Below are positions 15,232-44,975 of a stretch of DNA of 64,000 bases, piece by piece. Each line of letters begins with the position of its first letter. Position 1 is the first letter of the stretch. This DNA is from Planctomycetota bacterium (lineage in GTDB: Bacteria; Planctomycetota; UBA8108; SXIK01), in NCBI GenBank assembly GCA_965223845.1, contig CBDCXR010000004.1:4224001-4288000 (forward strand). Direction: 5' to 3'. Under the pieces are notes generated by a model that did not search any database, was not told where the DNA came from, and saw only the letters and a program-made list of their open reading frames with translations. Both the position numbers and the translations under genes were made by a program.

Positions 15232-15400
15232 CCCGTCGGGTCAAAAAACTCGAACGCGGTTTGTAGACAGGGCTTCTGAGCCGAGTCCCTCACCGGGAGA
15301 ACGTCGGATTCGGGACTGTGAGGAGCTCGCTGCGGTAGGCGAGCAATCGCCCGTAGATCAGAGACGATTTCGAACCGGGTCGCGACCGCTCCACCACTCT
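15232..15400 (+). repeat. Family-1-type left end with a conserved non-coding leader
   Basis: CCCGTCGGGTCAAAAAACTCGAACGCGGTTTG...GAGCTCGCTGCGGTAGGCGAGC...GAGACGATTTCG; homologous to 24305-24454 and partly to 17060-17113 and 45090-45165. Confidence 0.75.
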
Positions 15401-15501
15401 GCGGTAAAACGAACTCTCTCTCGCCGGGACGGGCGTCCGCGCCCTGCTCGGCGGAGGGGGCGGTTCGAGGGGCGTTCTGTGGAAGGACTTGCGCGCTTCG
15501 C

Positions 15502-15696
15502 CGTCGTGTCCAAAAACTCAACGGTGCCGTAAGCCACGTACCTAACCGAGTTTGCTTTCGGGCCGTTCGCCCGATTAGCATCGGAAGTATGAACGGCTGG
15601 ATCAATCGCCACCAGCAAGGCATCATCGGCTACCTCGTGGAGGAGAACCGAGTCCTCAAGCGGCAACTCGGCGGCCGGCGTGTTCGCCCCGAAGAC
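15502..15696 (+). mobile_element. Left end and 5' fragment of a related integrase-core IS subfamily
   Basis: CGTCGTGTCCAAAAACTC end followed by GWINRHQQGIIGYLVEENRVLKRQLGGRR, a typical N-terminus of this transposase group. Confidence 0.75.
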
Positions 15697-24304: not shown

Positions 24305-24740
24305 CCCGCGTGGATGAAACTCGAACGCGGTTTGCAACGGGACTTGGAATGAAGGCCCCCACCGCGAGACAGTCACGGGGCCATGTTCGGGATTGACGAG
24401 CTCGCTGCGGTAGGCGAGCGAGCGTCCATTGGCCAGAGACGATTTCGCCCCGGCGGCTTCCTCTGACTCGACGACGGGCACTTGAACGACACGCCGATTG
24501 CCGCCGCGTGCCAGCGCTAAGACCTACAGAGATCTCCGACCGCGAGGGCTGCGTCTGCTCGGCGGCGACGTGTTCGTCGTCCCGCAAGACGAGATCGCCC
24601 TCGCGAACCTGATCCGTCACTTTCGCGAGTTCGACCCATCGACCGTTCACCGGAAACTGGGCCTTTTGACGAGCGATTCGTGCTCTCGATCAAGAGCGAG
24701 TGTCTCGACCGGATGATCCGGTTCACCGAGGCGTCGCTAG
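24305..24740 (+). mobile_element. Degenerate family-1-type remnant (left end, leader, transposase fragment)
   Basis: Leader homologous to 15232-15400; ERFVLSIKSECLDRMIRFTEASL at ~24671-24740. Confidence 0.7.
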
Positions 24741-29683: not shown

Positions 29684-30266
29684 CCGACCGCCCCCCGTTC
29701 AGGTCATTGAATAACCAGGTCTTGGCGACGCTCCATTCACGCTTGACGGTCGCGGGGGATGTATTCAACGCTGTCGCCACATCCTCCACGCTCATCCCCC
29801 CGAAGTAGCGAAGCTCCACAACACGAGCCTTGCGCGGGCCGATCGCCGCGAGTCGCTCGAGAGATTCGTCGAGAGCCAGAAAGTCGATCGTCGGCTCTTC
29901 GTTCACGATGAGCTCCTCGTCGAGAGGGACTCTTCGTCCCGCGCTGCCGCCTCTCTTGAGACGATTCCGCTCGCGAGCGTGATCGATGAGCAGGTTTCGC
30001 ATGGCTTTGGCGACGAAGGCGCGGAACTGCACGCGGTTCTCACCGGGAATCGCGTCACGACGCAAGAGTCTAAGACACACCTCGTTGACGAGTGCGGTCG
30101 CCTGCAGAGTGTGCCCGGGAGTTCTTCTGTCGCTCAGATACGCGCGCGCCAGCTCTCTCAGCTCGTCGTAGATCGACGTGAGAAGCCGATCCCGCGCAGA
30201 AGAGTCGCCGCGACGGGCGAGTTCGAGCAGTGCCGTGATTTGTGAGGCCGAGGAGAAGTCGTCCAT
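29673..30266 (-). CDS. ECF sigma factor, TIGR02999 (planctomycete kinase-associated) type
   Basis: QITALL, IYDELRELA, HTLQATALVNE, RLKRGG and VVELRYFGG motifs; stop overlaps the kinase start. Confidence 0.9.
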   Translation of the reverse strand: MDDFSSASQITALLELARRGDSSARDRLLTSIYDELRELARAYLSDRRTPGHTLQATALVNEVCLRLLRRDAIPGENRVQFRAFVAKAMRNLLIDHARERNRLKRGGSAGRRVPLDEELIVNEEPTIDFLALDESLERLAAIGPRKARVVELRYFGGMSVEDVATALNTSPATVKREWSVAKTWLFNDLNGGRSGVD

Positions 30267-30591
30267 GCCGCAGGCAACGCGCGCCCAGCCGGGAGGCCGC
30301 CTCAAGCCCGAGAGCTTGAGAACGGTCCACGGCGCTTCTGCGGACCCGAGACCGACGAACGTCGCACGGCGACGAAACCCGCCTGTATCGATGCTCCGCT
30401 GCGGCTCGGACGAAGTCAATGTCTCTCTCGACGTCTGCTCGTCGTTGCGCGATTCGAAATGCCCGTGCCCTCGAGCCGGATTCGCCTACGACGACCAGGT
30501 CTACGACGACCAGAGCATTCGGAGTCGACTCGATCCTATTTGTGCGACTCCTTAGCCCTGGTCGTCGATCGCTACTCCTGGGTACCAGACG

Positions 30592-31239: not shown

Positions 31240-31852
31240 GGTGTTGCTCCTTTTCCATGATCTGAACGGAATGAGACAGTGGGTTTTCCAAACTCCCGAC
31301 AGAGAGTGGGCAGCCGCCCTTCGCGCGGGTGGACCGTTGTGACTGTGGAAACCAAAACCCTAATCCCGCCGCCCGAACCACCGTGATCGCGCGTATGTCG
31401 AGGCGTGTCCTGGCATACGGGAACTCGACGGCCTTCGGATTCTGGCGCACCCGGCCCGTTCACAGGGGGGAAACGACAACTGCGGGGGGACGAGCTCAGT
31501 TTTTTCTGCCGCAGGCTCAGAACCCGGACTGGAGCCGACGCGTGCAGGTCACGGTGCTGCGCGTCGCGGTATTCCATGGCTTGCGTCGCTACTACGACCG
31601 CGAAGCCGCGGAGCCGAACACCTCGCAACCTCTTCCCGCCCTCCCGGACTCGATACCGCCCACGAACCGACTGGCTTCCTTCGTCGACGAGCTGCTCGAC
31701 CCACCCCGACAGTCCTTCGACGTCTGAGCTCGTCGACCGCGTTCAAAACAGCCAGACGAGAAGACTCCGGCGTTCGACGAGAACTTGGCTGCGGCGCGAA
31801 CTCAAAACAGGGCGGGCTTGACCCGCCTCGCTCGACGAGCGAGAATGCGAGC

Positions 31853-32278
31853 ATGGCTGCGCTGTTTTTCTCGACCAAGCCTCAGTCGCAACACTCGCGA
31901 TACCGTCTGATCGCGCTGGTATCCGCTCTCGCGATCTTGGGGCAGGCTGTCTTGCCGCTTCTGCACGAAGTGACGGCGCACAGCCATGTCGAATCGGCGC
32001 TGGCTCACTCGCACGACTGGCCTTGCACTTCTTCCGAATCTCTGACGGAGTCCGTATCGCTTGCGGACACCCCGCCGTCCGAGACACGGATGGAATCCGA
32101 CTGTCAGATTTGCCTGGCGCTCAGCACAGTCCGCCACTCCATTGTTGCTCCGAGTGGCTCGCGAACCCACACCCCCCTCGCCTCTATCTCCGCAAGGAGA
32201 TTGATCACGTCACCAGACCTCTGGGTCTGCAGCTCGATCGATCTAAACCTTGCGGCGCCTCGGGCCCCTCCAGCCTGA
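31853..32278 (+). CDS. DUF2946-like leader protein (signal/TM, His-rich, CxxC, C-terminal RAPP)
   Basis: Hydrophobic N-terminus, LHEVTAHSH...HSH, DCQIC, ends AAPRAPPA-stop: the CruR/CutF architecture. Confidence 0.8.
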   Translation: MAALFFSTKPQSQHSRYRLIALVSALAILGQAVLPLLHEVTAHSHVESALAHSHDWPCTSSESLTESVSLADTPPSETRMESDCQICLALSTVRHSIVAPSGSRTHTPLASISARRLITSPDLWVCSSIDLNLAAPRAPPA

Positions 32279-32387
32279 ATCTGATCGCTTGTAGTTGAGC
32301 TCGACTCGCTGACCGAGCGCGGTTTGCCCGCGTGTCGACGGCGCGAGTTGAAAGCGCATGCGTTCAAGATTCACTGGAGACTTCAAA

Positions 32388-33002
32388 ATGCCCTCGATTC
32401 GCGAACAGCGGACGACGGTGCCATCGCGAGGCACGTCGAGCCGTTCCAGCGGACGGATCCGCGACGACCTAGTCTCGCGAGCCGTACGTGACCACCTAGA
32501 CGTAATGCTCGCAGCCGCACGACGCGTACTTCCTAGCGATGATCTTGCCTGGGACGCAGTGCAAGAATCCCTCCAAGCGCTCTGGAAGGAAGGAGCCATC
32601 AACACGCCTCTACGCGGTTGGCTGCTCCGAGCGGTTCGCCTCCGCGCTTTCCATTTGCTTCGGTCCGAGCGACGACGTCGCCAGCACGAAGCCGCGTGCG
32701 CCTGCCTTTGCTGCCTGGTCGCCTACGATGATCCGGCTCGTCGAATGGAGAACCGCGAGCTTTTGAATCTGGCGGTGAAGGCTATCGAACGATTGCCCCC
32801 AGCATATCGCAGTGTCGTCGAAATGCGTGACTGGCTCGACATGGACTACGCGTCCATTGCATTAGAGCTTGGCGTTCCCGTCGGTACGATCCGCTCGAGA
32901 CTCAGCCGCGCCCGTGATCAGGTGCGCGCGGCACTCCGCCCGGCACTTCGACAAGGCCGGCGTTCGGGCGCAGGAGGGAGACCGGTCGCATGTCTGGCGT
33001 GA
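32388..33002 (+). CDS. ECF sigma-70 factor with a Cys-rich sigma2-sigma4 linker
   Basis: GGAG RBS; AWDAVQESL...LRGWLLRAV (sigma2), HEAACACLCC linker, YASIALELGVPVGTIRSRLSRAR (sigma4). Confidence 0.88.
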   Translation: MPSIREQRTTVPSRGTSSRSSGRIRDDLVSRAVRDHLDVMLAAARRVLPSDDLAWDAVQESLQALWKEGAINTPLRGWLLRAVRLRAFHLLRSERRRRQHEAACACLCCLVAYDDPARRMENRELLNLAVKAIERLPPAYRSVVEMRDWLDMDYASIALELGVPVGTIRSRLSRARDQVRAALRPALRQGRRSGAGGRPVACLA

Positions 33003-35047
33003 AGAAGCTCACCGGAGATGCGCTTGCTACCGGAGTCGCTCTCCTCGTCGCATCGATCTTCCCAGCTCCTTTGCAGGCGCAGGATCCGGGTCAAAGCGTC
33101 GCGAGGTCACTCATCCGCGGCACCTACGAACGAGTTTTTTTTCCCGAAGACGTCACCCGAATCGCGGTAGGTGACAAAGGCCTCCTGTCGTTCGAGCTGT
33201 TGAACACGCGTGAAGCTCTTGTTCTCGGTAAGGGTGTCGGACGAACGAACGTAGTCGTGTGGTACTCGAGCGGCGCGATCTCCGATCATCGATTCTCCAT
33301 CGAAGAAGATCTTTCCGTCTTGAAAGAGGCCTTGCGTGATCTCGACCCTCGGATCGCTGCGGAAATGGCCTCCAATCGTGCCGCAATCGTACTGCGCGGG
33401 GTTGTGCCCAATGCGATCGTCATGGAGCGTGCCGTTCGGGTCGCGGAGGACTACTTGGGCTCACGCTCGGGACGCACCCGCCGTCGAGGGCGCGGCGCGG
33501 GCACGACGGGCCCGGAGGACCTGGCTCAATCGCTGCGACTCATGGCCGATGCGATCGAGACGACCGATCGGCCTGCGGGAGAAACAGAGACCGTCGTAGC
33601 ATCGTCCACTCCCTCGCCGACGGCATCGGGAACTGTAATCAACCTGCTTCGAGTGGAACAGCCCCCAGAGACGACCGAAGAAAAAATACTCCGTGCGATT
33701 CAGCCTATCGCAGGTTCCGACGTCGCCGTCCGACGAGTCCTGAAAGGGGCGGTACCCGACGATGAGCGCGACGTGTTCGTGCTCGAGGGAAAAGTCGCCA
33801 ACCAGGTCGCGCTCGTACGCGTCTTGTCACTCGCAGCGAGAATCATCACCGGAAGATCTCTCCGCGGAGTGCGCGGCGAAAGCCTCATTCGGGTTCTCGC
33901 CGAGGAAGGCGGCGGCCTTTTCGAGGGAGGCGGACAGTCCGGCCAGGGCAATCGAAACCGCCAGAACTCTGGCGGTGCTGGACGAGGTGGTTCGGGATCC
34001 GGAAGGAGTGCTAGTTTTTTTCAGAGCGATATCGAGACGAATATCGCGCGCGCCAAGGCGCTCGATGTCGCCGACGGGCGCATCCTCTCTTTCCTAGAGG
34101 TTTCCGATCTCCCGCTCGTCCGGGTCAATGTTCAGTTCTACGAGGTAAATCGAGCAGAGATCCTCAACTATTCGTCGGACTGGGCCGCGTTCGTCTCGAG
34201 TTTCGAACAACCTGCGCTGTTAGGAGCTGGGTTGGCACCGGGATTTCAGTCGGCGCCGGCGAGTGTGGGGACCTTTGCCGCTACGGATATCCAGAATGTG
34301 CTCTCCTCGATCGGCGGCAACCTCGGCAATCAGTTCCAATTAGTCGACGACCATCTCGCGGTCGATACGGCGTTTTCTCTGCTTGAAGCGAAGGGTCTGG
34401 CACGACGGCTCTCCGCTCCGTCATTGACGGTACTCTCCGGTGAGCAAGCCGCGCTCTCCGTAGGAGGTGAAATTCCGATCCAGGAGATCTTTTCACCGGC
34501 TTTCAGCGGTGATGATTCCCCGGGCGTGTTCGGCTCTGTGCGCTTTCGGAGTTTCGGGATCTCACTCAATATGAGACCCCAGATCGACGAACGGGACATG
34601 ATCACGCTGGAGCTCGCTCCTACCGTGAGTCAACCGGATCAGCAGCTGACTTCGGTGCTTGTTGATACGACTGGAGCCGAGCAACCGACGACCGCCTTTC
34701 AGAGTCGATCGATGGTTACGAGCAGTCGGTTGAGAGACGGGCAGTCCCTGATGCTCGGCGGACTCGTATCGCGAGGCGACGCGCGTGACATTTCCCAGCC
34801 GCCTTTGATCGGTGATATCCCGCTTCTGGGCTGGTTGTTTCGCAACTTCGGCGAAACCGACGACGACCGCGAGCTGGTGATCCTCGTCAACCCGACGATC
34901 GTCAGAGAACCTATCCCCGAAATCGGCCTCTGGTCGTTTGCGAAACCGAGCGAACTTCTCGAATCAGCCGGACTTCGAAGACCCAGAGCCGACGGCGATC
35001 CGTCGGAATCGCCGCCGCACCTCGCTAAAGATCGGAGCGGGTCGTGA
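32990..35047 (+). CDS. cpaC: Tad pilus secretin RcpA/CpaC
   Basis: Signal peptide; N-terminal pilus-formation domain (RIAVGD...GKGVGRTNVVVW); secretin motifs LTVLSGEQAALSVGGEIP, GDIPLLGWLFR and ELVILVNPTIV. Confidence 0.9.
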   Translation: MSGVKKLTGDALATGVALLVASIFPAPLQAQDPGQSVARSLIRGTYERVFFPEDVTRIAVGDKGLLSFELLNTREALVLGKGVGRTNVVVWYSSGAISDHRFSIEEDLSVLKEALRDLDPRIAAEMASNRAAIVLRGVVPNAIVMERAVRVAEDYLGSRSGRTRRRGRGAGTTGPEDLAQSLRLMADAIETTDRPAGETETVVASSTPSPTASGTVINLLRVEQPPETTEEKILRAIQPIAGSDVAVRRVLKGAVPDDERDVFVLEGKVANQVALVRVLSLAARIITGRSLRGVRGESLIRVLAEEGGGLFEGGGQSGQGNRNRQNSGGAGRGGSGSGRSASFFQSDIETNIARAKALDVADGRILSFLEVSDLPLVRVNVQFYEVNRAEILNYSSDWAAFVSSFEQPALLGAGLAPGFQSAPASVGTFAATDIQNVLSSIGGNLGNQFQLVDDHLAVDTAFSLLEAKGLARRLSAPSLTVLSGEQAALSVGGEIPIQEIFSPAFSGDDSPGVFGSVRFRSFGISLNMRPQIDERDMITLELAPTVSQPDQQLTSVLVDTTGAEQPTTAFQSRSMVTSSRLRDGQSLMLGGLVSRGDARDISQPPLIGDIPLLGWLFRNFGETDDDRELVILVNPTIVREPIPEIGLWSFAKPSELLESAGLRRPRADGDPSESPPHLAKDRSGS

Positions 35048-36057
35048 TCCAGCTTCACCGTCGCGGCGCGCGAGAGTCGGGGGCCGCGCTGATCGAGTTT
35101 GCGATCGTCTCTCTCGCTCTGTACCTAATCCTCGCTGCGATCCTTACCTTCGGCTCGGCGATCTGGATCGGCCAGAATCTGCAGCAGGCCGTCGATGTCG
35201 GAGCGCAGGAGCTGGCACGGCTGCCGCTTGATCCGGACATCGATCTGGGCTGGGGCGATCTCCAGCAGGGCTGTGCTGCCCCGGAGGATGTGGAGGACTT
35301 CGCAGCGTGCGACGGTCGCGTCCTGGACGAGATCTACGACAAACAGTACCTCGTCATAACTCGCCAAGATATCTCGAATTCGAATATCGATCCCGACTCC
35401 CCCACCGCGCTTCTCGAGTACGCCGAGACGCTGCCGTTGATCAATCGATTGCTGATCCCGGTAATGATTTTCGATCGCCAGCATAGCGGCGGATCCTGGC
35501 GCTATCCCGGAGCCGTAGTGTTGAATACCGTGACGCCAGAGCCCGAAGAAACCGTGCTCGTTCCGATCGTCAGGAATGGCGAAATCCGTTGGGTCGCGCC
35601 AGTGGAAGAAGTTCGAGTCGATCACGACGGAGATTCGGCTACAGCTCCGGTCGGGCCCTTTTCGGTGCTCCCCCCGGAACCGACTCCTCCTGGCTTCGTC
35701 CCCGGAGTGGTGGCCCTTCGGATCAACTACCCATTCCAAAGCGCGGCGATGTCCGATTTCACGCCGAGCCCGGAAGGTGCCCTCGAGCCGAACCTCGATC
35801 GTGTCGTAACTGCGGACGACGCGTCGCTGACCGCGGGTGCAACAGGAGTCTACGCGCTTCAGGTCGCCGCGAACTCCTACGCGGACGGTGAGCCGAACAT
35901 CCACGGAGGTCGCTATGGTCTTGGCCGCCAGATCGCATTGCCATTCGATCGAGACTCGATTCGCACGTTTGGAGTTCGACCCTACCGGCGGATCCTGTCC
36001 GTGCAGGCGATCTACCGCCGCGAGGTCTTCGATTTCGGCCTCGGATCCACACCATGA
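35044..36057 (+). CDS. tadE: TadE-like pseudopilin, long form
   Basis: ESG/AALIEFAIV prepilin motif plus hydrophobic helix; GTGA overlap with cpaC. Confidence 0.85.
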   Translation: MIQLHRRGARESGAALIEFAIVSLALYLILAAILTFGSAIWIGQNLQQAVDVGAQELARLPLDPDIDLGWGDLQQGCAAPEDVEDFAACDGRVLDEIYDKQYLVITRQDISNSNIDPDSPTALLEYAETLPLINRLLIPVMIFDRQHSGGSWRYPGAVVLNTVTPEPEETVLVPIVRNGEIRWVAPVEEVRVDHDGDSATAPVGPFSVLPPEPTPPGFVPGVVALRINYPFQSAAMSDFTPSPEGALEPNLDRVVTADDASLTAGATGVYALQVAANSYADGEPNIHGGRYGLGRQIALPFDRDSIRTFGVRPYRRILSVQAIYRREVFDFGLGSTP

Positions 36058-37316
36058 TTTCGCTACCGAAACCACTGCGCAGCCGAGAGGCCGGATCCGT
36101 ACTCGCGCTCTTCGCGATTCTTCTCTTCGGGCTCGTTGCGCTCCTGGCTTTGTCTATCGATACCGGATTCGTGCTACTGGCTCGCCGTCAGATGCAAGCG
36201 GCCGTCAACTCCGCCTCGGTCGAGGGTCTGCGCTGGCGCGATCGACTACCGCCTGTCGACGACTTGGTCGCTATCGGTGAGGATCCGAGTAACCCGGCAG
36301 AGCTCGAAACTCGAAAGGACGAGATTCGCCGCAAAATGGCGAGGCAATTCGTCCACGCCAGCTTCGATGTCGACTACGACGTAGGAAGCCCCGATCCGTC
36401 GACGGCCGTTCTCGGGGCCGGCCCGATGATCGGATTCGAAGGCGGGATCGATATCGGTGGCGGACTCAGAGCTTCCAGCTTGATTCGCCAACAGAATCCG
36501 AGGGCGTACAAACCAGCTCTCGCGCTGAATCTCGGTAATTCTGTCTCCGGAGACATGGTTTCCGGCGGCTATCTGGTGGACGGTTCGCGCGACGATTATG
36601 AGGACTTCCTCGACGTGAACGATCCGCCGGATGCCTTTCTCGTACGCCTCCGGCGGACAGACGAAGATCTTTCCTCGGCTCCGGACGCCAGCACGTCGGG
36701 TCCACCGATCCCCTCCCTATTCGGCAGGGCGGCCATCGCGCGCGCCGAGGAAGGCAATCCCCAGGCGCTACTTCAGCGTCGCGCGACTGGGGTTCGCGTT
36801 CGGGCGACGTCCATTGCCGATCTGAAACCCGCGGTCTCCGTCGGGTATTCATCGAACACGGACCGACCTGGAGTTCGCTACTTTGTCGACCGCTCGGTCT
36901 TCGACTGTTCCAATCCGACGATTCTCATCGACGAACTGGAGGTACCCCTCGATCCTCTGGGGCCACCCGTGCTCCCCTGTCCGTCGGGAGCGGGAGGAGC
37001 CGTCGTCCTTGGTGACTCGGTGGCGTCCCTCGTCCCTGCGGCACCTCCACTCCCTTCGGAGTCGTTCGTGGTGGCCATCTACGATTCGAGTGTTTGCCCG
37101 GCGGCGGCGGCAGATGTTGTCGTAGGCTTCGCGAACGTCAGAATCATCGACCAATCTGTCGTCCCCGCCGGCGATCTGGTCCTTGCGAACGGCTCCAGCA
37201 CCTTCGTTCGAAACTGCCAGCTCTCCGCGGACTGTTTCGACTCCTTGATCACGAACTGCTTTCAGCTCCAGGGGGCTGCGGTCAGAGCCCCAGCACGGGT
37301 GAGAGCAACTCGTTGA
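36054..37316 (+). CDS. tadG: TadG-like pilus-associated protein
   Basis: EAGSVLALFA...ALSIDTG...RRQMQAAVNSAS Tad N-terminus; six C-terminal Cys; ATGA overlap. Confidence 0.8.
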   Translation: MISLPKPLRSREAGSVLALFAILLFGLVALLALSIDTGFVLLARRQMQAAVNSASVEGLRWRDRLPPVDDLVAIGEDPSNPAELETRKDEIRRKMARQFVHASFDVDYDVGSPDPSTAVLGAGPMIGFEGGIDIGGGLRASSLIRQQNPRAYKPALALNLGNSVSGDMVSGGYLVDGSRDDYEDFLDVNDPPDAFLVRLRRTDEDLSSAPDASTSGPPIPSLFGRAAIARAEEGNPQALLQRRATGVRVRATSIADLKPAVSVGYSSNTDRPGVRYFVDRSVFDCSNPTILIDELEVPLDPLGPPVLPCPSGAGGAVVLGDSVASLVPAAPPLPSESFVVAIYDSSVCPAAAADVVVGFANVRIIDQSVVPAGDLVLANGSSTFVRNCQLSADCFDSLITNCFQLQGAAVRAPARVRATR

Positions 37317-37382
37317 CGGAGACGTTGGTCTTTTTGTCGAGTCCTTGGGAACTAGAGACGGTCCGGCGGCACTTCGACGCTG

Positions 37383-37904
37383 ATGACCAGCCCGTTTCTC
37401 GTTGACCGCTCGTTTAGTCGCCGACTCGACCGTGTCGGCATCGTCGTCTCGCTCGCCTGCGCGGCTCACTTCATTTCCGCGCCGGTGCTCCTGCTTGCCG
37501 CGCCCCTACTCGGCGGCCTGTGGGTGCACCCGGCTTCGCATGCGGTAATCGCTGCGTTCGCTCTGCCAGTGGCGGCGTTCTCACTACGGCGGGGATACGC
37601 CGTGCACGGCCGACGGTGGATCGCAGCAGCAGGCGCGCTCGGCGTCGCGTGCGTCGTACTCGGTGTGTTGTTGCCCGTGGCGACTGCGGCCGAACGACCG
37701 CCGGACGAAACGAATTTGAGCCGGTGCACGGATTGCTGCCCATCGATAGACATCGGGGCGGGGGCTGATTCCTGGTCACTTCGCATCCCTCCGGCGAGTT
37801 TCGTCAGCTTGATCGGTGGGATCGCCTTGGTCGCCGCGCACTTCGGGAATCTCCGTTGCTGCCGGAACTGCGGAAAAGCACGTGAGCGATCGTGTGAGCA
37901 GTGA
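37383..37904 (+). CDS. MerC-domain membrane protein with extra Cys clusters
   Basis: LDRVGIVVSLACAAH, GYAVHGRR and LVAAHFGNLR match the MerC-domain pattern; additional CTDCCP and CCRNC. Confidence 0.8.
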   Translation: MTSPFLVDRSFSRRLDRVGIVVSLACAAHFISAPVLLLAAPLLGGLWVHPASHAVIAAFALPVAAFSLRRGYAVHGRRWIAAAGALGVACVVLGVLLPVATAAERPPDETNLSRCTDCCPSIDIGAGADSWSLRIPPASFVSLIGGIALVAAHFGNLRCCRNCGKARERSCEQ

Positions 37905-38131
37905 CATCCGTGGGCGCGACAGCGCAGCTTTCGGCCGAGCGGGTCCGTTGGTGAGAGATTCGGTCCCCACCCGCGAGCAGGGTACAGAGGTTTCGACAGC
38001 ACGACGGAAGACTCAAAGAAGGAGAGTCTCGGAAATACCGGGAACTTCCTTCCGGCGAGCGGCACATCACACTCGAAAGGAGTGAAGTGCTCCTAGCCCC
38101 GTCACAACGATCCACAAGGAGGTTTCAAGAC

Positions 38132-38494
38132 ATGCGACAGAACATCCAACAAAGGAGGCGCGGAGCTGCAATGATCGAGTACGCCCTGCTCGTCGCGGGC
38201 GTCGTCCTCGTGGCCGCCGCTGCCACGGCAGTCTTCGGGCACAAGACGAACGACTTGATCTCTGGCGTAGCCGCTGTCCTTCCGGGTGCTCACGCAGACG
38301 ACAACGCCCCGATCGTCAGCGGCAAAATCATCGAGACGGCGCCCCAGGACCACGACGGGGACGCTGGAACGCCTGACGCCATCGCGCTCGATATCGACAC
38401 AATCGTTACCAACTCCGACGGCACGGTCGAGCGTCTCGGGAACCGCCTAGGTACGGCATCGAGCATCACGCAGCTGATCGTCGAGGCCGAATAG
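38132..38494 (+). CDS. flp: Flp (type IVb) pilin with a long C-terminal extension
   Basis: AAGGAGG RBS; RRG/AAMIEYALL Flp motif; hydrophobic helix. Confidence 0.9.
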   Translation: MRQNIQQRRRGAAMIEYALLVAGVVLVAAAATAVFGHKTNDLISGVAAVLPGAHADDNAPIVSGKIIETAPQDHDGDAGTPDAIALDIDTIVTNSDGTVERLGNRLGTASSITQLIVEAE

Positions 38495-38595
38495 CCCCGC
38501 GGCGACCAGTCTTAGACTCGAATTCGAAACGCTCAAGGAGTTGCCCTCAGCCCAGGGCGACTCCTTGGGCATTGTTTGCATCTCGGAGAAAGCAC

Positions 38596-39747
38596 ATGGC
38601 AAGACCGCGCAGAAGCTCGACTCCCTGGGTCGTCGTGACTCTTCTCTTGATCGGCGTGTACGGGCTCGCGGTCTACCTTCAGGTCGAGGGCTATCTGCGA
38701 TTGCCGTTCGAGCTGCCGCTCGTTTCCCAATTTCAGAGGGCTACTTCCGAGGGAGCGGTCGACGCACAGTCGAACGCGCGTGGAAAAATCGCGGTGCCGA
38801 TGTCTGCAGCAGATATTCCTGCCTACACAAAGCTTCGCCGAGAGCACATGTGGGATTCCAAGCGGGGCAGGTTTACCACCATTCTGTTGGACGAAGACGA
38901 CGTCCCGGCGGCCGTACTCCGAGATTTTTCCGAGATCGTGGGGCGTGTTCTCGACCATGACAAACCAGCAGGCTACGTGTTCACCGAGGACGATTTCTAT
39001 CCGAAGGGAACGCGAGAAGGGCTGGTCGCAGGGATCCCGCCGAACAAGATGATGTTGTTGGTCGAGGCGAACAAGGTGAAGGGGCTCTTCGGACTCAGGC
39101 CGGGAGATCGGTTCGACATAGTCCGCACGATCCCCGTCGATTCGAAGGGCGGCGCGGTGTCCCGAGAGACTGCCGGGCCCTACGGGGATCAGATCTCGCT
39201 CGCCATGAAGTTGTCCAACTGGGACAAGCAGGCTGAGGTCCGCGTTGTGGTTCGAGACGGCGTAGTGGTGACTCCGGTGAAGACGAGAGCCAAGCCGACC
39301 TCGAGTCAGAGCCTCACCAGAGGAGCCGTTGCCCGTTCCGTGCCGATCCAAGAGATTTATATCGCGGTTGCTCCCGAGGAAGCGGCGCCGTTGAGCGAGG
39401 CAATGGCGGTTGGTGCCGACGTGAGAGCGGTGATTCGATCGGGTCATGCTACCGTGCCTGCGAACATAGGCGTCTCGGATCTTCAACCACGCAATCCTCT
39501 CAACGACCTGATGTCGGCTTTGATCCCCGCCGACACGGCGTCTTCGAACGGGACGTTTAGGCCAGCGGTCGCAGGTTCGTTCCGACTCGTCGAACGCGTA
39601 GAAGACGGCCGACGTCAGCTCGTGACCGTTCCCGGTTTCGTAGATCGTCAGAACCAGGAACGGTGGGACGGCCAGATTCGCGTCGTCCCTGCTGCGGGTT
39701 CGCTCGACACCACGGAAAGCGGAACGCAAGGTGAGCGGGACGAGTAG
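38596..39747 (+). CDS. cpaB: CpaB/RcpC-like pilus assembly protein (SAF domain)
   Basis: N-terminal TM; DIPAYTKL SAF-like motif, LRPGDRFDI and IAVAPEEA motifs; operon position. Confidence 0.8.
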   Translation: MARPRRSSTPWVVVTLLLIGVYGLAVYLQVEGYLRLPFELPLVSQFQRATSEGAVDAQSNARGKIAVPMSAADIPAYTKLRREHMWDSKRGRFTTILLDEDDVPAAVLRDFSEIVGRVLDHDKPAGYVFTEDDFYPKGTREGLVAGIPPNKMMLLVEANKVKGLFGLRPGDRFDIVRTIPVDSKGGAVSRETAGPYGDQISLAMKLSNWDKQAEVRVVVRDGVVVTPVKTRAKPTSSQSLTRGAVARSVPIQEIYIAVAPEEAAPLSEAMAVGADVRAVIRSGHATVPANIGVSDLQPRNPLNDLMSALIPADTASSNGTFRPAVAGSFRLVERVEDGRRQLVTVPGFVDRQNQERWDGQIRVVPAAGSLDTTESGTQGERDE

Positions 39748-39756
39748 GAATCGCCG

Positions 39757-41052
39757 ATGCAGATTCTGTTGGTTAGCTCTGATCCATCGCTCCGCGAGGA
39801 ATTCGAGGCCGCACTCGAAAACCTAAAGGAATTCAGTCCCTCCGTCCTCACGGCCGACAGCCCACGACAGGGGGTCGAGGTCGCACGGATTCGACGCCCA
39901 AACCTCGTCCTCATCGAAATGGACGCGAACGGAGGACGGCTCGACCGGTTCGCGTCGGAAATCTCGGCCCACGCACCTCGCACTCTCATCGGCGCGGTGT
40001 ATCGCGCAGACGTGCTCGGGTCAGGAAGCTCGGAAACCGCAATCATCTCGGGCGTTCGAGCCGGCGTGAGCGACTTTCTTCGCCGCCCTCTTTCCAGTGT
40101 GGAAATCGAGCAGTTGCTCATTCGCGCGCGGCACCGAAACGCGCGCCAGGCCCCGGTCGCCCGAGGCCTCATCGTGTCGGTTTCCAGCACGAAAGGAGGG
40201 GTTGGAAAGTCGACGCTCGCAGTCAACAGTGCATGCCTTCTCGCGCGCCGCGCGCCCGGGCGAGTGCTGCTTGTCGATGCATCCCTTCAGCTCGGCGTGT
40301 GCGCACGAATGCTCGACCTCGAAACGAAGACGACCATCACCGACGCGACGCAGGAACTCGATCGGCTGGATCCCACGCTACTGCGTGAGTTGGCGCTCCA
40401 CCACGACAGCGGGCTGCATCTCCTTGCGGCGCCCAAGGATCCAGTCGGCTCGACGGAGGTGAACGACGAGGCTATCGCCCGTGTCTTGGCGACTGCGCGT
40501 CAAGCCTACGAGTATGTCGTGGTCGACACCTTCCCACTTCTGGAATCGGTGGTGCTTGCCGTGCTCGATCTCAGCGACCTCGCCTACCTCGTCTTTCAAG
40601 GCACGGTTCCCTGCGTCCTTGGCCATGTCGGATATCTTCGGGCGCTTGAGAACGTCGGAATTGATGTGAATCGACAACGTCTCGTGTTGAGTCGAAACCA
40701 CGCGCGGTTTTCTGGTGATCTGTCGCTCAGCGATATCGTCCGCAAACTCGGTCGCGACATCGATCACGTCATTCCGTACCAACGGCGCATACTGAGCTCC
40801 ATGAACACTGGTGAACCCTACGTGCTGCGACACCGAGGATTATTCGGGTTCGGACGCGCAGTGCGGAATCTTGTTCACGAAATTGTTCAGGAGCGGGAGG
40901 CTCAAAGCATTAACGGAGATCAGAAGAACGCGCACTCATCCGAATCCTCCCCCGCGGATCACGCCGAAGGAGATTCTGTCCGAGTGCGTGAACCAGATTT
41001 CAGAGCTCCACAGCAGCAGGGTTCGACTCGCTCATCGGAGGTTAATCAATGA
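39757..41052 (+). CDS. cpaE: CpaE/TadZ receiver-like plus ParA/MinD ATPase
   Basis: N-terminal receiver-like domain; KGGVGKST deviant Walker A; SGLHLLAAP. Confidence 0.9.
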   Translation: MQILLVSSDPSLREEFEAALENLKEFSPSVLTADSPRQGVEVARIRRPNLVLIEMDANGGRLDRFASEISAHAPRTLIGAVYRADVLGSGSSETAIISGVRAGVSDFLRRPLSSVEIEQLLIRARHRNARQAPVARGLIVSVSSTKGGVGKSTLAVNSACLLARRAPGRVLLVDASLQLGVCARMLDLETKTTITDATQELDRLDPTLLRELALHHDSGLHLLAAPKDPVGSTEVNDEAIARVLATARQAYEYVVVDTFPLLESVVLAVLDLSDLAYLVFQGTVPCVLGHVGYLRALENVGIDVNRQRLVLSRNHARFSGDLSLSDIVRKLGRDIDHVIPYQRRILSSMNTGEPYVLRHRGLFGFGRAVRNLVHEIVQEREAQSINGDQKNAHSSESSPADHAEGDSVRVREPDFRAPQQQGSTRSSEVNQ

Positions 41053-42479
41053 GCGGCGCGAACGACACGAGTGACACGGAGGCGTCGATCCGGGACCGGA
41101 TACGGTCTCAAGGACGAGAAAAGCCGGTTCGGCTTCGAAAGAAAAGATCCGATGAGTCGCTCTCGGATCGCTCCCGAACGAACGTGCGGTCGACAGTGCC
41201 CGCCTCGGCGACGGACTACGTGGCGATCAAAGCCGGACTCCAGCGACGTCTTCTCGAGGAGATCTCCGAGCGCAACGTTCTGAACGAATCCGATGATGCG
41301 CTTGCGGGGGCGGTCGACGAGTTCGTCTCTCGGGTGCTCGAGACAGAGAAAATCCCGCTCAACCGAAGCGAACGGGACCGTCTTGCCGACGAACTGCGCG
41401 AGGAAACGACCGGTGCGGGACCGCTGGCTCCGCTCATGGCAGATCCGGCGGTGACGGACATCCTCGTAAACGGTCCGCGTAAGGTGTACGTCGAGAGATT
41501 CGGGCTCCTCGAGCGAGCCGGTGTGCAGTTTAGAGATGCCGAGCACATCGTTCGGGTGATCGAGCGAATCGCGGCTCGGATCGGGCGGCGTATCGATGCG
41601 AGCGCACCGCTCTTGGATGCGCGCTTGCCCGATGGTAGTCGTGTCAACGCGACGATCCCCCCGATTTCCATCGATAGTCCGACGATCTCGATCCGCCGTT
41701 TCGGTCAGCGTCGCCTCCGCTCGCAGGACCTTCTTCAACTGGGGATGTACTCGGTCGACATGATCGAGTTTCTCGCGCATGCCGTGAGAGCTCGAATGAG
41801 TGTCCTGGTCTCGGGCGGGACCGGCGCCGGAAAGTCCACACTGCTCGGAGCTCTCTGCGAGTCTATTCCGGATCTCGAACGAATCGTAACGATCGAGGAT
41901 ACGGCCGAGTTGCTGCTTGACCAAGAACACGTGGTGCGCATGGAGAGTAGGCCCTCCAACACCGAAGGGCGAGGCCGCATCACGACGCGAGATCTTGTCA
42001 TCAATTCGCTCCGGATGCGTCCGGATCGCATCATCGTCGGAGAGGTCAGGGGCGGCGAAGCTCTAGATATGCTTCAGGCTCTCAACACGGGCCATGACGG
42101 TGGTCTCTCTACGATCCACGCGAACTCCCCGCGGGATGCCTTGTCTCGTCTCGAGACCATGGTGTTGATGTCGGGGCTCGATCTGCCGTCTAGGGCCATC
42201 CGCGAGCAAATTGTCGCGGCCCTGCGATTTGTGGTGCACGTTCGTCGTTTCGAAGACGGAGTGCGACGAGTCGAGAACGTATCTGAGATCGTTGGCTTGG
42301 AGGGCGCAACGCCCCTCCTCAACGAGGTGTTTCGTTTTGAGCGGCGCGGCTTCGAACGCAATCGCGTGATGGGCGCGTACCGACCCACGGGTATCGTTCC
42401 GAGGCTCGTCGACGAGTTGGGCCGCCGCGGCGTCAAGATTCCCGTGGACATGTTCCAACCTCCGCAGGAGAGAACATGA
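41049..42479 (+). CDS. cpaF: CpaF/TadA pilus assembly ATPase
   Basis: GGTGAGKST, TIEDTAEL, LRMRPDRIIVGEVRG and NTGHDG motifs. Confidence 0.95.
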   Translation: MSGANDTSDTEASIRDRIRSQGREKPVRLRKKRSDESLSDRSRTNVRSTVPASATDYVAIKAGLQRRLLEEISERNVLNESDDALAGAVDEFVSRVLETEKIPLNRSERDRLADELREETTGAGPLAPLMADPAVTDILVNGPRKVYVERFGLLERAGVQFRDAEHIVRVIERIAARIGRRIDASAPLLDARLPDGSRVNATIPPISIDSPTISIRRFGQRRLRSQDLLQLGMYSVDMIEFLAHAVRARMSVLVSGGTGAGKSTLLGALCESIPDLERIVTIEDTAELLLDQEHVVRMESRPSNTEGRGRITTRDLVINSLRMRPDRIIVGEVRGGEALDMLQALNTGHDGGLSTIHANSPRDALSRLETMVLMSGLDLPSRAIREQIVAALRFVVHVRRFEDGVRRVENVSEIVGLEGATPLLNEVFRFERRGFERNRVMGAYRPTGIVPRLVDELGRRGVKIPVDMFQPPQERT

Positions 42480-43339
42480 CGCACCCCGCCCTCTGGTTGA
42501 CCGGACTTGCCGGAATCAGCTTGATCGTGGTGGCCGTTCGCCGCCGGAGCACCTACAGAACTGCCCTAACTCAGCTGACGCGGGACGAGGTCGAGGAAGA
42601 CCGGTTTCAAGACGAGCAAGAGACCGCCCCACGACCTGCCCTATCGCCTCCCAAGCACTGGGTGGCAGTCGCCCTGTCGCTTTCGAGCGGAGCGGTGTTG
42701 TATCTCGTCGCTGATTTGCCGATCGTCTTCGCGATTACACTCTCCTTGATCGTCGGCATAAGTGCGTTCGTTGTCGTCGAGTCAGTTCGTGAAAGAAAAC
42801 TACTACGTCTCGAAAGGCAACTGGCGGACACGGTCGATCTGCTCGTCGCATCTCTTCGAGCCGGAGCAGGGATCATGGACGCACTAGAGGATGCCGTGCG
42901 GGAATCGAGAAGACCGCTGCGGGGAGTCCTGGAGGCGACTCTCACACGACTACGCTATGGAGATTCACCGCACCGGGTATTCAGCGAGTTCGCGGAGTCG
43001 ATCTCGCTCGAATCAGTACGACTCTTCTCTCTCTCCTTGTCTGTTCACTGGGAAGTCGGCGGCAGCCTTGCGTCGAGCCTCTCTAGCGTCGGACGCTTCA
43101 TCAGGGACCGCGTCGAGGCTCAACGCAGCGTCTCCACGCAGGGCGCGCAGGTTCGGGCGTCAGTGATCGGCGTGACTCTCGTCGCGTACTTTATTGCCAT
43201 CATCGTTTGGCGGTCACGGCCCGACGCCATGGCTGCGTTTCTTACGACAACCGTGGGGACTTGGCTGACGTCGGTAGCTCTCATGCTTCAAGCATTGGGG
43301 CTGTTCTGGATGTTCAAGCTAAGCCGCATTCGATACTGA
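42476..43339 (+). CDS. tadB: TadB inner-membrane platform protein
   Basis: T2SSF-like LVASLRAG and EVGGSLA motifs; TM helices. Confidence 0.88.
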   Translation: MTHPALWLTGLAGISLIVVAVRRRSTYRTALTQLTRDEVEEDRFQDEQETAPRPALSPPKHWVAVALSLSSGAVLYLVADLPIVFAITLSLIVGISAFVVVESVRERKLLRLERQLADTVDLLVASLRAGAGIMDALEDAVRESRRPLRGVLEATLTRLRYGDSPHRVFSEFAESISLESVRLFSLSLSVHWEVGGSLASSLSSVGRFIRDRVEAQRSVSTQGAQVRASVIGVTLVAYFIAIIVWRSRPDAMAAFLTTTVGTWLTSVALMLQALGLFWMFKLSRIRY

Positions 43340-43353
43340 CAGGAAACGCTCTT

Positions 43354-44271
43354 GTGAACGACGCCGTCGTATGGCTGACAGCCTCCGCGGGCGTAGCGCT
43401 GCTCTTGATCGGGATATGGCGCTCGCGAGGGCGACAACCGATCCGAGCAAGGCTTTTCGAGGACGATTCCGCCCCCTCGCTGCCTCCCCCTGTCGACGTA
43501 GCCTCTTCAGCGCCATTGGATTCGTGGATCAGCCGGTGGCTTTACGTTGCCGGGTTCAGACACAGACGATCGACCACCGTTTTTCTCCTCTGGGCCGCGT
43601 TTGCGGCGTTCGTCGGTGGGATGGCCGGCTACGCGCTACAGAGTTCGGGGTTCCTCGATCTGGGTGCGCAGTGGCTCGCCGAAGTTCCTGGAGGACTTGG
43701 CGAGCTCTTCCTTCCGGCGATCGTTCTGGCGCCTTGGATTGTCTTCGCGATCGTGTCGTCGATCCCATGGCTCCACGTGAGAGCGTCACGCCGGCGAATT
43801 GTGAACGAAATCGAGCAAGATCTGCCCATAACGGCGGAGCTCCTCGCAACCCTCGGCGAGGCGGGGCTCGGGTTCGACTCGGCCGTCGACCGAATCCTCG
43901 CCTCAAAACAGAAGCACCGCGCATTGGCATCCGAGCTCGGTGCGTTTCGGCGAGATCTTTTGGCAGGACTTCCTCGCATCCAAGCTCTTCGCCGGCTTGC
44001 GGTTCGCGTTGATCTTCCGGCTGTATCGACAGTCGTTTCGGCTCTCGTGCAGGCGGAGCAGGTAGGAGCAGGGCTCGCGAGCGTGCTCCGGAACGAAGCT
44101 GACGACTTGAGAAACCGTCGACGCGAGCGGGCTCTTCGCGTTGCGCAGGCGTTGCCGGTCAAGCTCACCGTGCCGCTAGTCCTCTGTTTTTTCCCGGCGA
44201 TCGTCATTGCGGTTCTGGGCCCTACGTTCTTCGAGATCTTTCAGATGCTCGAAACTTATCTGGCTCGCTGA
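43354..44271 (+). CDS. tadC: TadC inner-membrane platform protein
   Basis: EAGLGFDSA, LVQAEQVG and KLTVPLVLCFFPA motifs; start inferred at GTG 43354. Confidence 0.88.
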   Translation: MNDAVVWLTASAGVALLLIGIWRSRGRQPIRARLFEDDSAPSLPPPVDVASSAPLDSWISRWLYVAGFRHRRSTTVFLLWAAFAAFVGGMAGYALQSSGFLDLGAQWLAEVPGGLGELFLPAIVLAPWIVFAIVSSIPWLHVRASRRRIVNEIEQDLPITAELLATLGEAGLGFDSAVDRILASKQKHRALASELGAFRRDLLAGLPRIQALRRLAVRVDLPAVSTVVSALVQAEQVGAGLASVLRNEADDLRNRRRERALRVAQALPVKLTVPLVLCFFPAIVIAVLGPTFFEIFQMLETYLAR

Positions 44272-44282
44272 GCGGGGAACGA

Positions 44283-44975
44283 ATGAACGAATCAGGCTCC
44301 TACTTCAAGTCTCTGCTCTTGCGAGCATGCACGGCGGCCGTTCTCGGGGCGTATAGCGTCGCCTCCGGTTGCGCCACGATGACGCTCGAAGGGCCAGACG
44401 ATCCGGCTAGCGAGCTGAGATCGCTGCTCGACGAGCTCGAGTCCCGCACAGACGAGGGCAACCATGGAGAGGACGCAAGGCGAAGGCTCGCCAGGCTCTC
44501 GGCCAAGTATCCGCGCGACGTCGACATCCATCTAGCGAATGCAGTGTACGCAGCGCAGGACGCGGATCCCGCCGGTGCGAGGTTCCATCTCGACGCGCTC
44601 TTTCGCATCGTTTCCGTTCATCCAGAGGCTGCACTCCTTCGAGCTGAGCTTGCGATGAAGGAAGGAAACCTCCCGCTCGCGTTGCGAGTACTCGACGAAC
44701 AGATTCGTCTCGTCCCCGATCATCCTGGCTTACGCGAGACCCGTGGATCGGTGTACTACTTTCGGGGCGAATACCGAGCCGCTTGGGAGGAACTGCAGCG
44801 GGCTTTGAGCCTCGGCGCGCCTGGTTGGCGAGTGGCTTATCACAAAGGCTTAGTAGCCGAGGCGGAGGGGAGGTCCGAGGACGCTCGGACGCTCTACGAA
44901 AACAGCCTCCGTCTGAATCCTGACTTCCAACCCGCTGCGTCGCGCGCTCGCGCGCTAAGCGAGGCTGGGGAGTAG
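44283..44975 (+). CDS. tadD: TPR lipoprotein, TadD-like pilotin
   Basis: Lipobox VASGC; TPR repeats; last gene of the tad operon. Confidence 0.75.
   Translation: MNESGSYFKSLLLRACTAAVLGAYSVASGCATMTLEGPDDPASELRSLLDELESRTDEGNHGEDARRRLARLSAKYPRDVDIHLANAVYAAQDADPAGARFHLDALFRIVSVHPEAALLRAELAMKEGNLPLALRVLDEQIRLVPDHPGLRETRGSVYYFRGEYRAAWEELQRALSLGAPGWRVAYHKGLVAEAEGRSEDARTLYENSLRLNPDFQPAASRARALSEAGE

Follow-up and report, generated by a model that had tools for sequence, protein, structure and literature searches.

Tad (Flp) pili have been studied as organelles of adhesion, biofilm formation and predation, and what is known of their regulation comes mostly from a few proteobacteria. The Tad locus described here lies in a 64,000-nucleotide stretch, the window, of contig CBDCXR010000004.1 (positions 4,224,001 to 4,288,000), which belongs to a planctomycete with a genome of 7.9 Mb and an estimated completeness of about 91%. 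Between window positions 31853 and 44975, all on the + strand, lie 13 genes in the order leader, extracytoplasmic function (ECF) sigma factor, cpaC, tadE, tadG, a MerC-like gene, flp, cpaB, cpaE, cpaF, tadB, tadC and tadD; they are tightly packed, with several overlaps of 4 or 13 nucleotides (nt). An earlier note on this DNA had claimed just such a co-directional run, with metal-ligand motifs in the three genes that are not pilus genes, and both the order and the motifs are indeed present: HSHVESALAHSH and CQIC in the leader, HEAACACLCC in the ECF sigma factor, and CAAH, CTDCC and CCRNC in the MerC-like protein. Comparison with related loci suggests, with moderate probability, a cascade in which a metal-sensitive translational arrest in the leader gates translation of the ECF sigma factor, which in turn would switch on the pilin and MerC-like genes, probably under scarcity of a metal that may be zinc.

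Two sets of loci have been used for comparison. The first came from a sample of 400 other Planctomycetota genomes, in which this Tad subtype was marked by its long TadE-like protein; the second came from a search with the pilin alignment, keeping one genome per species, which gave 211 relatives, and the counts cover 76 loci. At least eight contigs occur in both sets and many loci are closely related, which makes the counts given below descriptive; they do not represent independent trials. G numbers denote the sampled Planctomycetota genomes (G000 being that of the window) and L numbers the fetched loci.

The closest described relatives of the leader are CruR (Bp2923) of Bordetella pertussis and CutF of Rhodobacter capsulatus, which, like the leader here, are encoded by a small gene standing first in its operon and carry an N-terminal export anchor, a CxxC motif with His residues and, further on (at about 45 residues, or 49 in the window), an RAPP sequence near the stop codon, with a long gap before the next gene. 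Members of their family, DUF2946, have been described as having a CXXC motif and an RAPP sequence three residues before the end, the two motifs being 45 residues apart with a tolerance of one or two, and more than 95% of them carry an export signal; "a few" are mentioned for Planctomycetes, and no sigma or pilus genes are given as lying downstream in the main text section concerned (PMC9426467). RAPP and RGPP are the strongest arrest cores known, the stopped ribosome having the first of the two Pro codons in its P site and the next in its A site, and ordinary proteins strongly avoid RAPP (PMC12992588). In the case of CutF, a stem-loop covers the ribosome-binding site of the next gene and is melted when the ribosome stalls (preprint 10.1101/2025.02.05.636593).

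The window leader is a 141-amino acid (aa) protein encoded at 31853-32278. Its anchor, read directly from the sequence with no predictor, consists of K9, R16 and R18 followed by about 19 hydrophobic residues, LIALVSALAILGQAVLPLL; after it come a His-rich stretch, the CQIC motif at residues 84-87 and a C-terminus reading ...AAPRAPPA-stop, in which RAPP occupies residues 137-140 and is followed by the final Ala. The four RAPP codons, CGG GCC CCU CCA, lie at 32261-32272, and at the predicted arrest Pro139 would occupy the P site and Pro140 the A site. The gap to the ECF gene is 79 nt if that gene starts at ATG 32358 and 109 nt if it starts at ATG 32388. The assignment to a DUF2946-like family made in the earlier note is thus borne out by the anchor, the CXXC motif, the terminal RAPP and the position at the head of the operon, but not by the Pfam score, which falls under the cut-off. 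The leader further differs from CruR and CutF in its CxxC-to-RAPP spacing of 49 and in having associated genes that point to zinc and not to copper, and what follows it is the gene of an ECF sigma factor, proposed to drive a Tad pilus and a MerC-like protein, where theirs are followed by a TonB-dependent transporter or a copper oxidase. When the genome was searched for a CxxC followed after 40-54 aa by R[AG]PP within 6 aa of a stop, this signature was carried by 2 of the 72,182 frames that run from stop to stop over 60 aa or more; the other is rich in Arg, Ser and Pro, has no anchor and looks spurious. The leader signature is more than chance.

The same design -- a short basic N-terminus, a single hydrophobic anchor, His-rich tracts, a CxxC and a terminal R-A/G-P-P -- is found in relatives. 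A transmembrane anchor, then CxxC, then R[AG]PP one to five residues before the stop are encoded upstream of the ECF gene in the window and in G131, G278, G217, G201, L135, L192 and L208. The spacing from CxxC to R[AG]PP is 48 in G131 and 44-45 in G278, G217, G201 and G371, so that a range of 44-49 aa covers the window, G131, G278, G217 and G201; the CxxC itself varies among homologues as CTLC, CATC, CGAC, CGLC, CVLC and CRVC. Of the 13 first-set loci with the ECF, 10 have a leader, always in the order leader, then ECF. Five further leaders (L101, L104, L109, L114 and L116), His/Cys-rich, upstream of ECF genes and with weak DUF2946 matches, end in LAPK(T/N)SP(P/T), two to four residues before the stop, which may be an undescribed arrest motif. 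Two DUF2946-type leaders ending in RAPP or RGPP, at 7713-8243 (+) and 1735-2241 (-), are also seen in an ECF-less Tad locus, that of G371 (L100); one of them passes the Pfam cut-off and sits about 400 nt upstream of flp.

The placing of an arrest peptide immediately before an ECF gene is known from Streptomyces lividans, where SLIV_33595 and SLIV_33605 carry a C-terminal RAPP or RGPP (PMC12992588). In vitro arrest has been demonstrated for a set of peptides containing both (PMC12992588). The Streptomyces peptides belong to another family, have four transmembrane segments and no known signal or regulon (PMC12992588), whereas the leader here has a single anchor, is DUF2946-like and stands before a sigma factor for which a regulon can be proposed.

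The arrangement between leader and ECF gene recalls CutF in a further respect, a predicted stem-loop that would hide the ribosome-binding site of the next gene. The predicted long-range helix spans 32268-32379, with the sequence from the Pro-Pro codons onward (CCU CCA GCC UGA AUC...), which contains CUCCAG and the stop-codon region, as its 5' arm (32268-32284), and a 3' arm (32366-32379) that contains the Shine-Dalgarno sequence of the ECF gene, CUGGAG at 32374-32379, 8 nt before ATG 32388. The helix predicted for G131 pairs CCUCCAG...AAUCGUG with CACGAUU...CUGGAGA, adding a further 7 bp with different flanking bases. In minimum free energy folds, the 13-nt region of the ECF Shine-Dalgarno sequence pairs with the 3' end of the leader in all ten of the first-set loci with a leader, over 3 to 12 nt each, two pairs of the ten loci being congeners. 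The summed pairing is 81 nt against a mean of 21.8 for same-length control segments drawn from the same loci, and none of 20,000 resamples reached 81.

The ECF sigma factor itself (204 aa, 32388-33002) has Pfam Sigma70 regions 2 and 4 joined by a linker with the CXC-containing sequence HEAACACLCC. Its start is most likely ATG 32388 and not the alternative at 32358, because a GGAG 8 nt upstream of the former is conserved in G131. Among the genes of the locus no adjacent anti-sigma gene was detected from the list of open reading frames (ORFs) and Pfam. Both the lack of an anti-sigma partner and the linker CXC (CAC) are shared with CorE and CorE2 of Myxococcus xanthus (ECF44/ECF238), and in a review the CXC between sigma2 and sigma4 is called essential for CorE activity, CorE-like sigmas being defined by that motif together with a C-terminal Cys-rich domain (PMC8999054). 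Region 4 of the window protein is followed by about 20 residues with one Cys, so this second feature is absent. The 13 tad-linked ECFs (that of the window and 12 relatives) align as one group, with DLAWDAVQE and RRR..HE in common; linker Cys residues occur in 6 of the 13, as a CXC cluster in the window, G131, G264 and G202 and as other Cys residues in G108 and G385, a restricted distribution that limits the metal interpretation. The ECFs of G278, G217 and G201 instead have an N-terminal PCxECR motif. The comparison with CorE drawn in the earlier note therefore holds for the linker, but neither for the C-terminal domain nor across the orthologs, and by the published definition the window protein is not a member of the CorE family. 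Its Cys-rich linker may nevertheless provide a second, direct metal or redox input.

A promoter motif that this sigma factor could read was recognized when the regions upstream of flp in the window and G131 were compared: GGAAC-N11-GAGCGGCA. In the window the match GGAACTTCCTTCCGGCGAGCGGCA at 38041-38064 is perfect (13/13), lies 67 nt before the flp ATG and is the only perfect site; a second match, GGAAC-N11-CGGCGGCA (11/13), at 37348-37371, lies 11 nt before the ATG of the MerC-like gene. The occurrence of the motif follows that of the ECF gene. Taking the best match within 300 nt upstream of flp, at least 12/13 is reached in 9 of the 13 first-set genomes with the ECF and in none of the 11 without it, while random 330-nt windows reach that score in 0.6% of cases; in the second set the figures are 19 of 29 loci with the ECF against 3 of 44 without, the three exceptions being short or truncated contigs or the second, orphan copy of flp in G131. 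Before MerC-like genes a 13/13 site is found in seven of eight loci with the ECF and none of three without, six of those seven coming from one clade. Altogether 19 perfect sites occur in the 2.43 Mb searched, eight before flp, seven before merC and one before cpaC, so that 16 of the 19 sit within about 200 nt upstream of one of these genes. The other strict match in the window's genome, at position 1,776,670 of contig 4, is inside or before ordinary ORFs. Autoregulation of the ECF through this motif was also considered and has been rejected, as none of the 29 ECF genes has such a site (11/13 or better) within 900 nt upstream; the ECF must therefore be controlled in another way.

One more gene may belong to the regulon. 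Just upstream of the leader-ECF-tad unit of G131 (L131 2347-4206, -), and 55 nt behind a perfect GGAAC-N11-GAGCGGCA site, lies the gene of a 619-aa secreted protein with three repeats, each starting HGHGHEDD, a C-terminal DHDHD run and a dockerin-like end, a candidate metal-binding member. No homolog of its repeat part was found in the genome of the window.

The MerC-like gene (37383-37904) encodes a 173-aa membrane protein which matches MerC (PF03203) with 69.1 bits (E 5.9e-19; cut-off 27.6) and is the sole copy in the genome. It resembles the MerC of mer operons in its small size, its several membrane spans, a first helix that contains Cys and a C-terminus rich in Cys, but there is no mer operon here, and the protein has the motifs of its own planctomycete subfamily, whose members typically are paired with a Fur-family gene. 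These motifs are CA[IV]HC, W.HP..H, C..CCP, AH..N and a Cys-rich tail; the window copy shows them as CAAHF (one Cys fewer), WVHPASH, CTDCCP, AHFGN and a C-terminal CCRNC. The family is over its cut-off in 51 of 401 Planctomycetota genomes, G000 included. Among 53 regions around MerC-like genes, 12 have a Fur-family gene no more than 1.3 kb away, which suggests a metal-uptake module under a repressor. A mercury-resistance role for the MerC-like gene was entertained and rejected: no MerA over cut-off was found in the genome (best 387.7 bits against 454.45), and no mer genes were seen in the Pfam scans of the window or of related loci, the genome-wide search having covered MerA and not MerR, MerT or MerP.

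How far this neighborhood is conserved bears on whether its parts belong together. The long TadE-like marker is found in 28 of the 400 genomes, 14 of which also have a MerC match, against 47 of the other 372. An orthologous ECF gene stands directly before cpaC or elsewhere within the locus in 12 of these 28 Tad loci. In the second set, which includes loci from Nitrospirota and Acidobacteriota (L139, L142, L143, L144, L172, L174 and L136), the 76 loci have the ECF in 29, MerC in 11, the leader in 7, a Fur-family gene in 8 and COG0523 in 6. Viewed from the MerC side, a homologous Tad locus adjoins the gene in 5 of the 53 regions, each taken with about 10 kb on either side (G131, G187, G379, G385 and G046, from four families); the MerC gene may follow tadD, precede flp (between tadG and flp), stand beside cpaC or lie between two flp copies. 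None of the three genes -- leader, ECF or MerC-like -- is universal in this Tad subtype, which limits the metal interpretation. The possibility raised by the earlier note, that homologous tad loci might lack the metal-motif genes, is not what was found: ECF, MerC-like gene and DUF2946-type leader recur in several families and phyla.

The other genes found in related loci are of a consistent kind: Fur-family, ArsR-family, COG0523, FolE2, DUF1826, ZIP and NicO-like. COG0523, FolE2, DUF1826 and ZIP form a classic zinc-starvation set. A link between COG0523 and Zur has been stated in print (PMC4176598). Fur-family genes lie inside the tad loci of G217, G278, G201, G379 and G187 and of four Nitrospira loci, where the arrangement is Fur-flp-flp-cpaC; COG0523-flp-cpaC is also seen in Nitrospira. 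The locus of G046 holds ZIP, FUR, COG0523 and two MerC genes, and that of G160 COG0523 and DUF1826. In L192 (1-7100, -) the ECF gene heads a unit divergent from cpaC-flp-tad, in which FolE2 (4e-59) and then the MerC-like gene each stand behind a perfect motif, with a phosphoesterase-like gene, DUF1826 and COG0523 coming after them. In a clade without leaders the ECF gene (L149, L155, L158, L160 and L202) or cpaC (L163) has a divergent ArsR/SmtB-family gene just upstream. Metal genes are enriched in these loci: at least one metal marker occurs in 26 of the 76 loci, and in 22 of the 48 that are at least 15 kb long, against 0.8% of 20-kb windows in the window's own genome, a baseline from that single genome.

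Typing of the Fur-family genes as Zur, Fur or PerR was attempted and abandoned, all NCBIfam matches being far below the equivalog cut-offs. In G000 and G131, two genomes of one order and both about 91% complete, no Fur-family match (PF01475) was found at E <= 0.001, at which completeness absence is not proven; four other ECF-Tad genomes do have one. In G217 and G278 (L090 11663-12466, -; L089) a Fur-family ORF and flp share one open frame with no intervening stop; as the two are in different frames in G201, this is probably not a conserved fusion.

Taken together, the neighbors COG0523, FolE2, DUF1826, ZIP and Fur favor a scarcity response and, among metals, zinc. Of the metal-linked pilus (Cu, Zn, Ni or Hg) suggested in the earlier note, the metal link is thus supported by comparative evidence, though the neighbors point toward zinc scarcity and away from copper or mercury detoxification; the sequences show which genes are present, how they are conserved, where the motif occurs and what pairing is predicted, whereas the arrest, the metal, the polarity and the role of the pilus are inferred. 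The cascade would run as follows. As the ribosome reaches the RAPP codons, the exported part of the nascent DUF2946-type leader would sense a transition metal through its His-rich and CxxC region. With the Pro-Pro codons and stop region forming one arm of the helix and the ECF Shine-Dalgarno sequence lying in the other, a ribosome arrested on RAPP would hold the helix open, allowing the ECF to be translated, and one that runs through and leaves would let it close. The ECF, having no anti-sigma partner, would then read the GGAAC-N11-GAGCGGCA promoters before flp and the MerC-like gene, the flp promoter also serving cpaB through tadD behind an attenuator after flp. The MerC-like protein would act as a Cys/His-rich inner-membrane protein for metal binding or transport, one that elsewhere in the phylum has a Fur-family repressor as partner. 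A CruR-like logic would be the most likely, with scarcity of the metal, most likely zinc, leading to arrest, ECF and pilus, and bound metal to shut-off. It is the zinc-starvation genes of the related loci that make this polarity the most likely one; the opposite polarity of CutF, the copper-sensing leaders and the untypable Fur genes keep the case for zinc and scarcity from being closed.

A number of results weigh against this cascade. The support for it is comparative and drawn from sequence, and the kinship among loci and the overlap of the two sets mean that the counts overstate independence. When RNA evidence was sought for window positions 31700-39700, the stretch turned up in four data sets from a single study, all of them contigs and none recorded as RNA. 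The leader scores 16.1 bits (E 0.02) against PF11162 over profile positions 2-117 of 117, short of the gathering score of 23.7; seven of 14 leaders match this profile at all and one, from G371 (24.0 bits), passes its cut-off. The spacing of 49 lies outside the 45 +/- 2 of CruR. The leader is missing from three of the 13 first-set ECF loci (G072, G385 and G379) and from most of the 29 of the second set, and the APK[TN]SP[PT] ending of some others is not a known arrest motif. As to the helix, the whole leader-ECF segment of the window folds no better than shuffled sequences (z = -1.0), a simple duplex test clearly beats shuffles in the window and G131 alone (0.10-0.34 in the eight others), pairing of the Shine-Dalgarno region to the leader tail covers 9, 6 and 1 of 13 nt in three new loci, and the closest relative, L135, fails the strict pairing window, its helix closing 19-27 nt upstream of the start. 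As to the promoter, the site before merC in the window scores only 11/13 and five more such sites occur elsewhere in the 64 kb (128 kb counting both strands), while genome-wide the loose pattern is at chance, with 28 matches against 23 for a reversed control. Finally, no Fur-family gene of the related loci can be identified as a Zur, and both characterized DUF2946 leaders sense copper and not zinc (CruR, PMC9426467; CutF, preprint 10.1101/2025.02.05.636593).

The same cascade could also work with the polarity of CutF, bound metal inducing arrest so that ECF, pilus and MerC-like protein are made under excess, for detoxification, sequestration, or escape or attachment; this we consider rather unlikely. 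In one clade the ECF is accompanied by regulators of the ArsR/SmtB type, which usually respond to an excess of metal by de-repression, and MerC proteins owe their name to a mercury-handling role. CutF itself stalls when copper-bound and turns on a detoxifying oxidase by way of a shielding stem-loop, an RNA design like that seen here (preprint 10.1101/2025.02.05.636593), and the czrCBA efflux operon of Caulobacter is headed by a DUF2946 gene (PMC4176598). The accessory genes, however, are of the scarcity type (Fur-family repressors, COG0523, FolE2, DUF1826 and ZIP). Pfam scans of the tad-locus ORFs, though not aimed at efflux pumps, multicopper oxidases or mer genes, showed none of them, and MerA over its cut-off is missing from the genome itself. 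The leader might also monitor something other than metal, namely secretion or the thiol-disulfide state of the periplasm, with arrest at RAPP released by Sec pulling or by Cys oxidation and the ECF-Tad unit answering to envelope or redox conditions. Most known RAPP arrest peptides do monitor Sec or YidC, and upstream ORFs with RAPP or RGPP precede disulfide-bond and thioredoxin genes as well as the ECF genes of Streptomyces lividans (PMC12992588); in the model for CutF, formation of a disulfide in the leader contributes to release (preprint 10.1101/2025.02.05.636593). Several Cys residues in the TadE-like and TadG-like proteins would fit as well. This reading is nevertheless improbable, since it leaves without explanation both the His-rich tracts beside the leader CxxC and the recurrent Fur, ArsR, COG0523, FolE2, ZIP and MerC-like neighbors, and the Pfam scans of the loci turned up no Sec, YidC or Dsb genes apart from a NicO/DsbD_2-like gene in G358.

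There is very little likelihood that the small upstream protein is instead a membrane anti-sigma factor or some other partner of the ECF, its RAPP end being incidental. ECF sigmas usually neighbor the gene of a single-pass anti-sigma factor and none is otherwise found here; the His residues near CxxC in several leaders also bear a loose resemblance to zinc-binding anti-sigma motifs. Yet the stretch before the anchor is only about 16 residues long and the Cys/His region comes after it; in the usual orientation, with the N-terminus inside, this region would lie outside the cytoplasm and could not hold a sigma factor. The gene is moreover upstream of the sigma gene, at a gap of 79-109 nt, and not downstream, and a terminal R[AG]PP at a fixed distance from CxxC is conserved across families, and RAPP is a sequence which, as noted above, ordinary proteins strongly avoid (PMC12992588). 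Chance juxtaposition, an ordinary adhesion Tad operon with unrelated passengers, is the hardest to credit. That none of the three genes is universal in the subtype and that the MerC-like gene changes place would agree with it, but the association recurs in several families and phyla, the promoter motif shared by flp and merC tracks the presence of the ECF, and the enrichment over the genomic baseline is large; the motif and locus counts already contradict it.

The pilus genes themselves largely resemble the core set of the Caulobacter Cpa and Aggregatibacter Tad/Flp systems (flp, cpaB/C/E/F, tadB, tadC, tadD, tadE and tadG), and CpaF/TadA, the two TadB/C proteins, CpaC, CpaE/TadZ and TadE/TadG are above the Pfam cut-offs, the exceptions being the pilin and CpaB. 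The secretin gene cpaC/rcpA (32990-35047; Secretin and T2SS-T3SS_pil_N, E 6.9e-37) overlaps the ECF stop by 13 nt. It is followed by the genes of the two pseudopilins, TadE-like (35044-36057, 337 aa, Pfam TadE 3.8e-7), the long marker of this subtype, and TadG-like (36054-37316, 420 aa, Pfam Tad/TadG 3e-5), both longer than in the Caulobacter and Aggregatibacter systems. The pilin gene flp lies at 38132-38494; its ORF opens at GTG 38087 and the start is most likely ATG 38132. The 120-aa product belongs to a long subtype (105-135 aa, against the reference pilins) with the conserved core FGHKTNDLI...VLPGAHxDDN, here FGHKTNDLI...VLPGAHADDN, and reaches 13.8 bits with Flp_Fap, below threshold. Its class III processing motif G/AAMIEY, RRRGAAMIEYALL, agrees with the pattern G/xxxxEY that was looked for, and G11, E16 and Y17 are invariant in the 13-member pilin alignment. 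Directly after flp, at 38531-38570, is a GC-rich 17-bp hairpin followed by ATTGTTTGC (fold z = -3.08), likely an attenuator or terminator between the pilin gene and cpaB onward, as expected where pilin is expressed above the level of the machinery genes.

The remaining genes are cpaB/rcpC at 38596-39747, whose ORF opens at TTG 38572 and whose most likely start is ATG 38596 (matches below threshold to Pfam RcpC and to NCBIfam pilus_cpaB, the latter with E 1.5e-12); cpaE/tadZ at 39757-41052, encoding a ParA/MinD-like ATPase by Pfam with a weak receiver-like N-terminus; cpaF/tadA at 41049-42479, encoding the secretion ATPase (T2SSE, 1.1e-61); tadB at 42476-43339 and tadC at 43207-44271, both T2SSF, the start of tadC being ambiguous between the opening of its ORF at 43207 and an ATG at 43371; and tadD at 44283-44975, encoding a TPR lipoprotein-like protein. 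In addition to its dedicated ECF sigma factor and metal-linked accessory genes, the locus differs from those of Caulobacter and Aggregatibacter in having no gene for a prepilin peptidase (CpaA/TadV); the one A24 match of the genome is at position 1,537,184 of contig 4, 2.7 Mb away. In most relatives an A24 peptidase gene comes right after flp. The idea that the MerC-like protein substitutes for the missing peptidase was dropped, as the G385-like clade has both A24 and MerC and the L135 locus neither.

Just before the leader ATG a sigma-70-like promoter match, TTGACC-17-GAGAAT, is found at 31818-31846; it is the only such match there and, being a match to consensus, is weak evidence. Its -35 element is overlapped by a palindrome, GGCGGGCTTGACCCGCC (31811-31827), a possible operator; the transcript of the leader gene may be leaderless. 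Planctomycete-specific PSD/PSCyt domains were detected near the locus in the Pfam scan of the window. Two other genes or gene pairs in the window also involve sigma factors. Divergent from the Tad unit, at 24737-30419 (-), are a PF07638-type ECF sigma gene (29673-30419) and then the gene of a 1648-aa Ser/Thr kinase-WD40-malectin protein, a pair that is not beside the Tad locus of G131. Farther away, the gene at 12006-15626 (-) encodes 1206 aa in which sigma-70 regions 2 and 4 (residues 203-351) come ahead of a CarboxypepD_reg domain and Ig-like repeats; the product resembles a sigma factor extended very far at its C-terminus.

The Tad pilus, the ECF sigma factor, the DUF2946 arrest leader and the MerC-family protein are each of a known kind; new are the wiring from leader to sigma factor to pilin and MerC-like genes, the promoter motif that defines the regulon, and the embedding of such loci, across phyla, in metal-starvation neighborhoods. 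No published description of a Tad/Flp pilus with a metal-sensing leader and an ECF sigma factor was found in the literature on DUF2946, MerC and zinc, and Tad pili; among the matches listed, the nearest on Flp pilus and ECF sigma is a SigX transcriptome of Pseudomonas. One tentative possibility is that a widespread and unrecognized class of Tad/Flp systems, in Planctomycetota, Nitrospirota and Acidobacteriota, is part of a trace-metal (zinc) starvation response, in which a fiber of long pilin and a MerC-like importer would either fasten the cell to particles or prey that bear metal or collect the metal from them, and that in the lineage of the window, where no Fur was found, the relay of arrest peptide and sigma factor controls it all. 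The three-step relay this would entail, from transmembrane metal-sensing arrest peptide to sigma factor to pilus, is not known to have been described for any pilus.

If the link to metal homeostasis is true and conserved, it would give Tad pili a new physiological role and an orphan group of ECF sigma factors a concrete, testable regulon and promoter. It would also extend the arrest mechanism of CruR and CutF from transporters to the control of a sigma factor, possibly in response to a metal other than copper, and it offers a working hypothesis for a large set of MerC-like proteins unrelated to mercury. Since cultured relatives with parts of the module are among the pilin matches, these predictions are testable.

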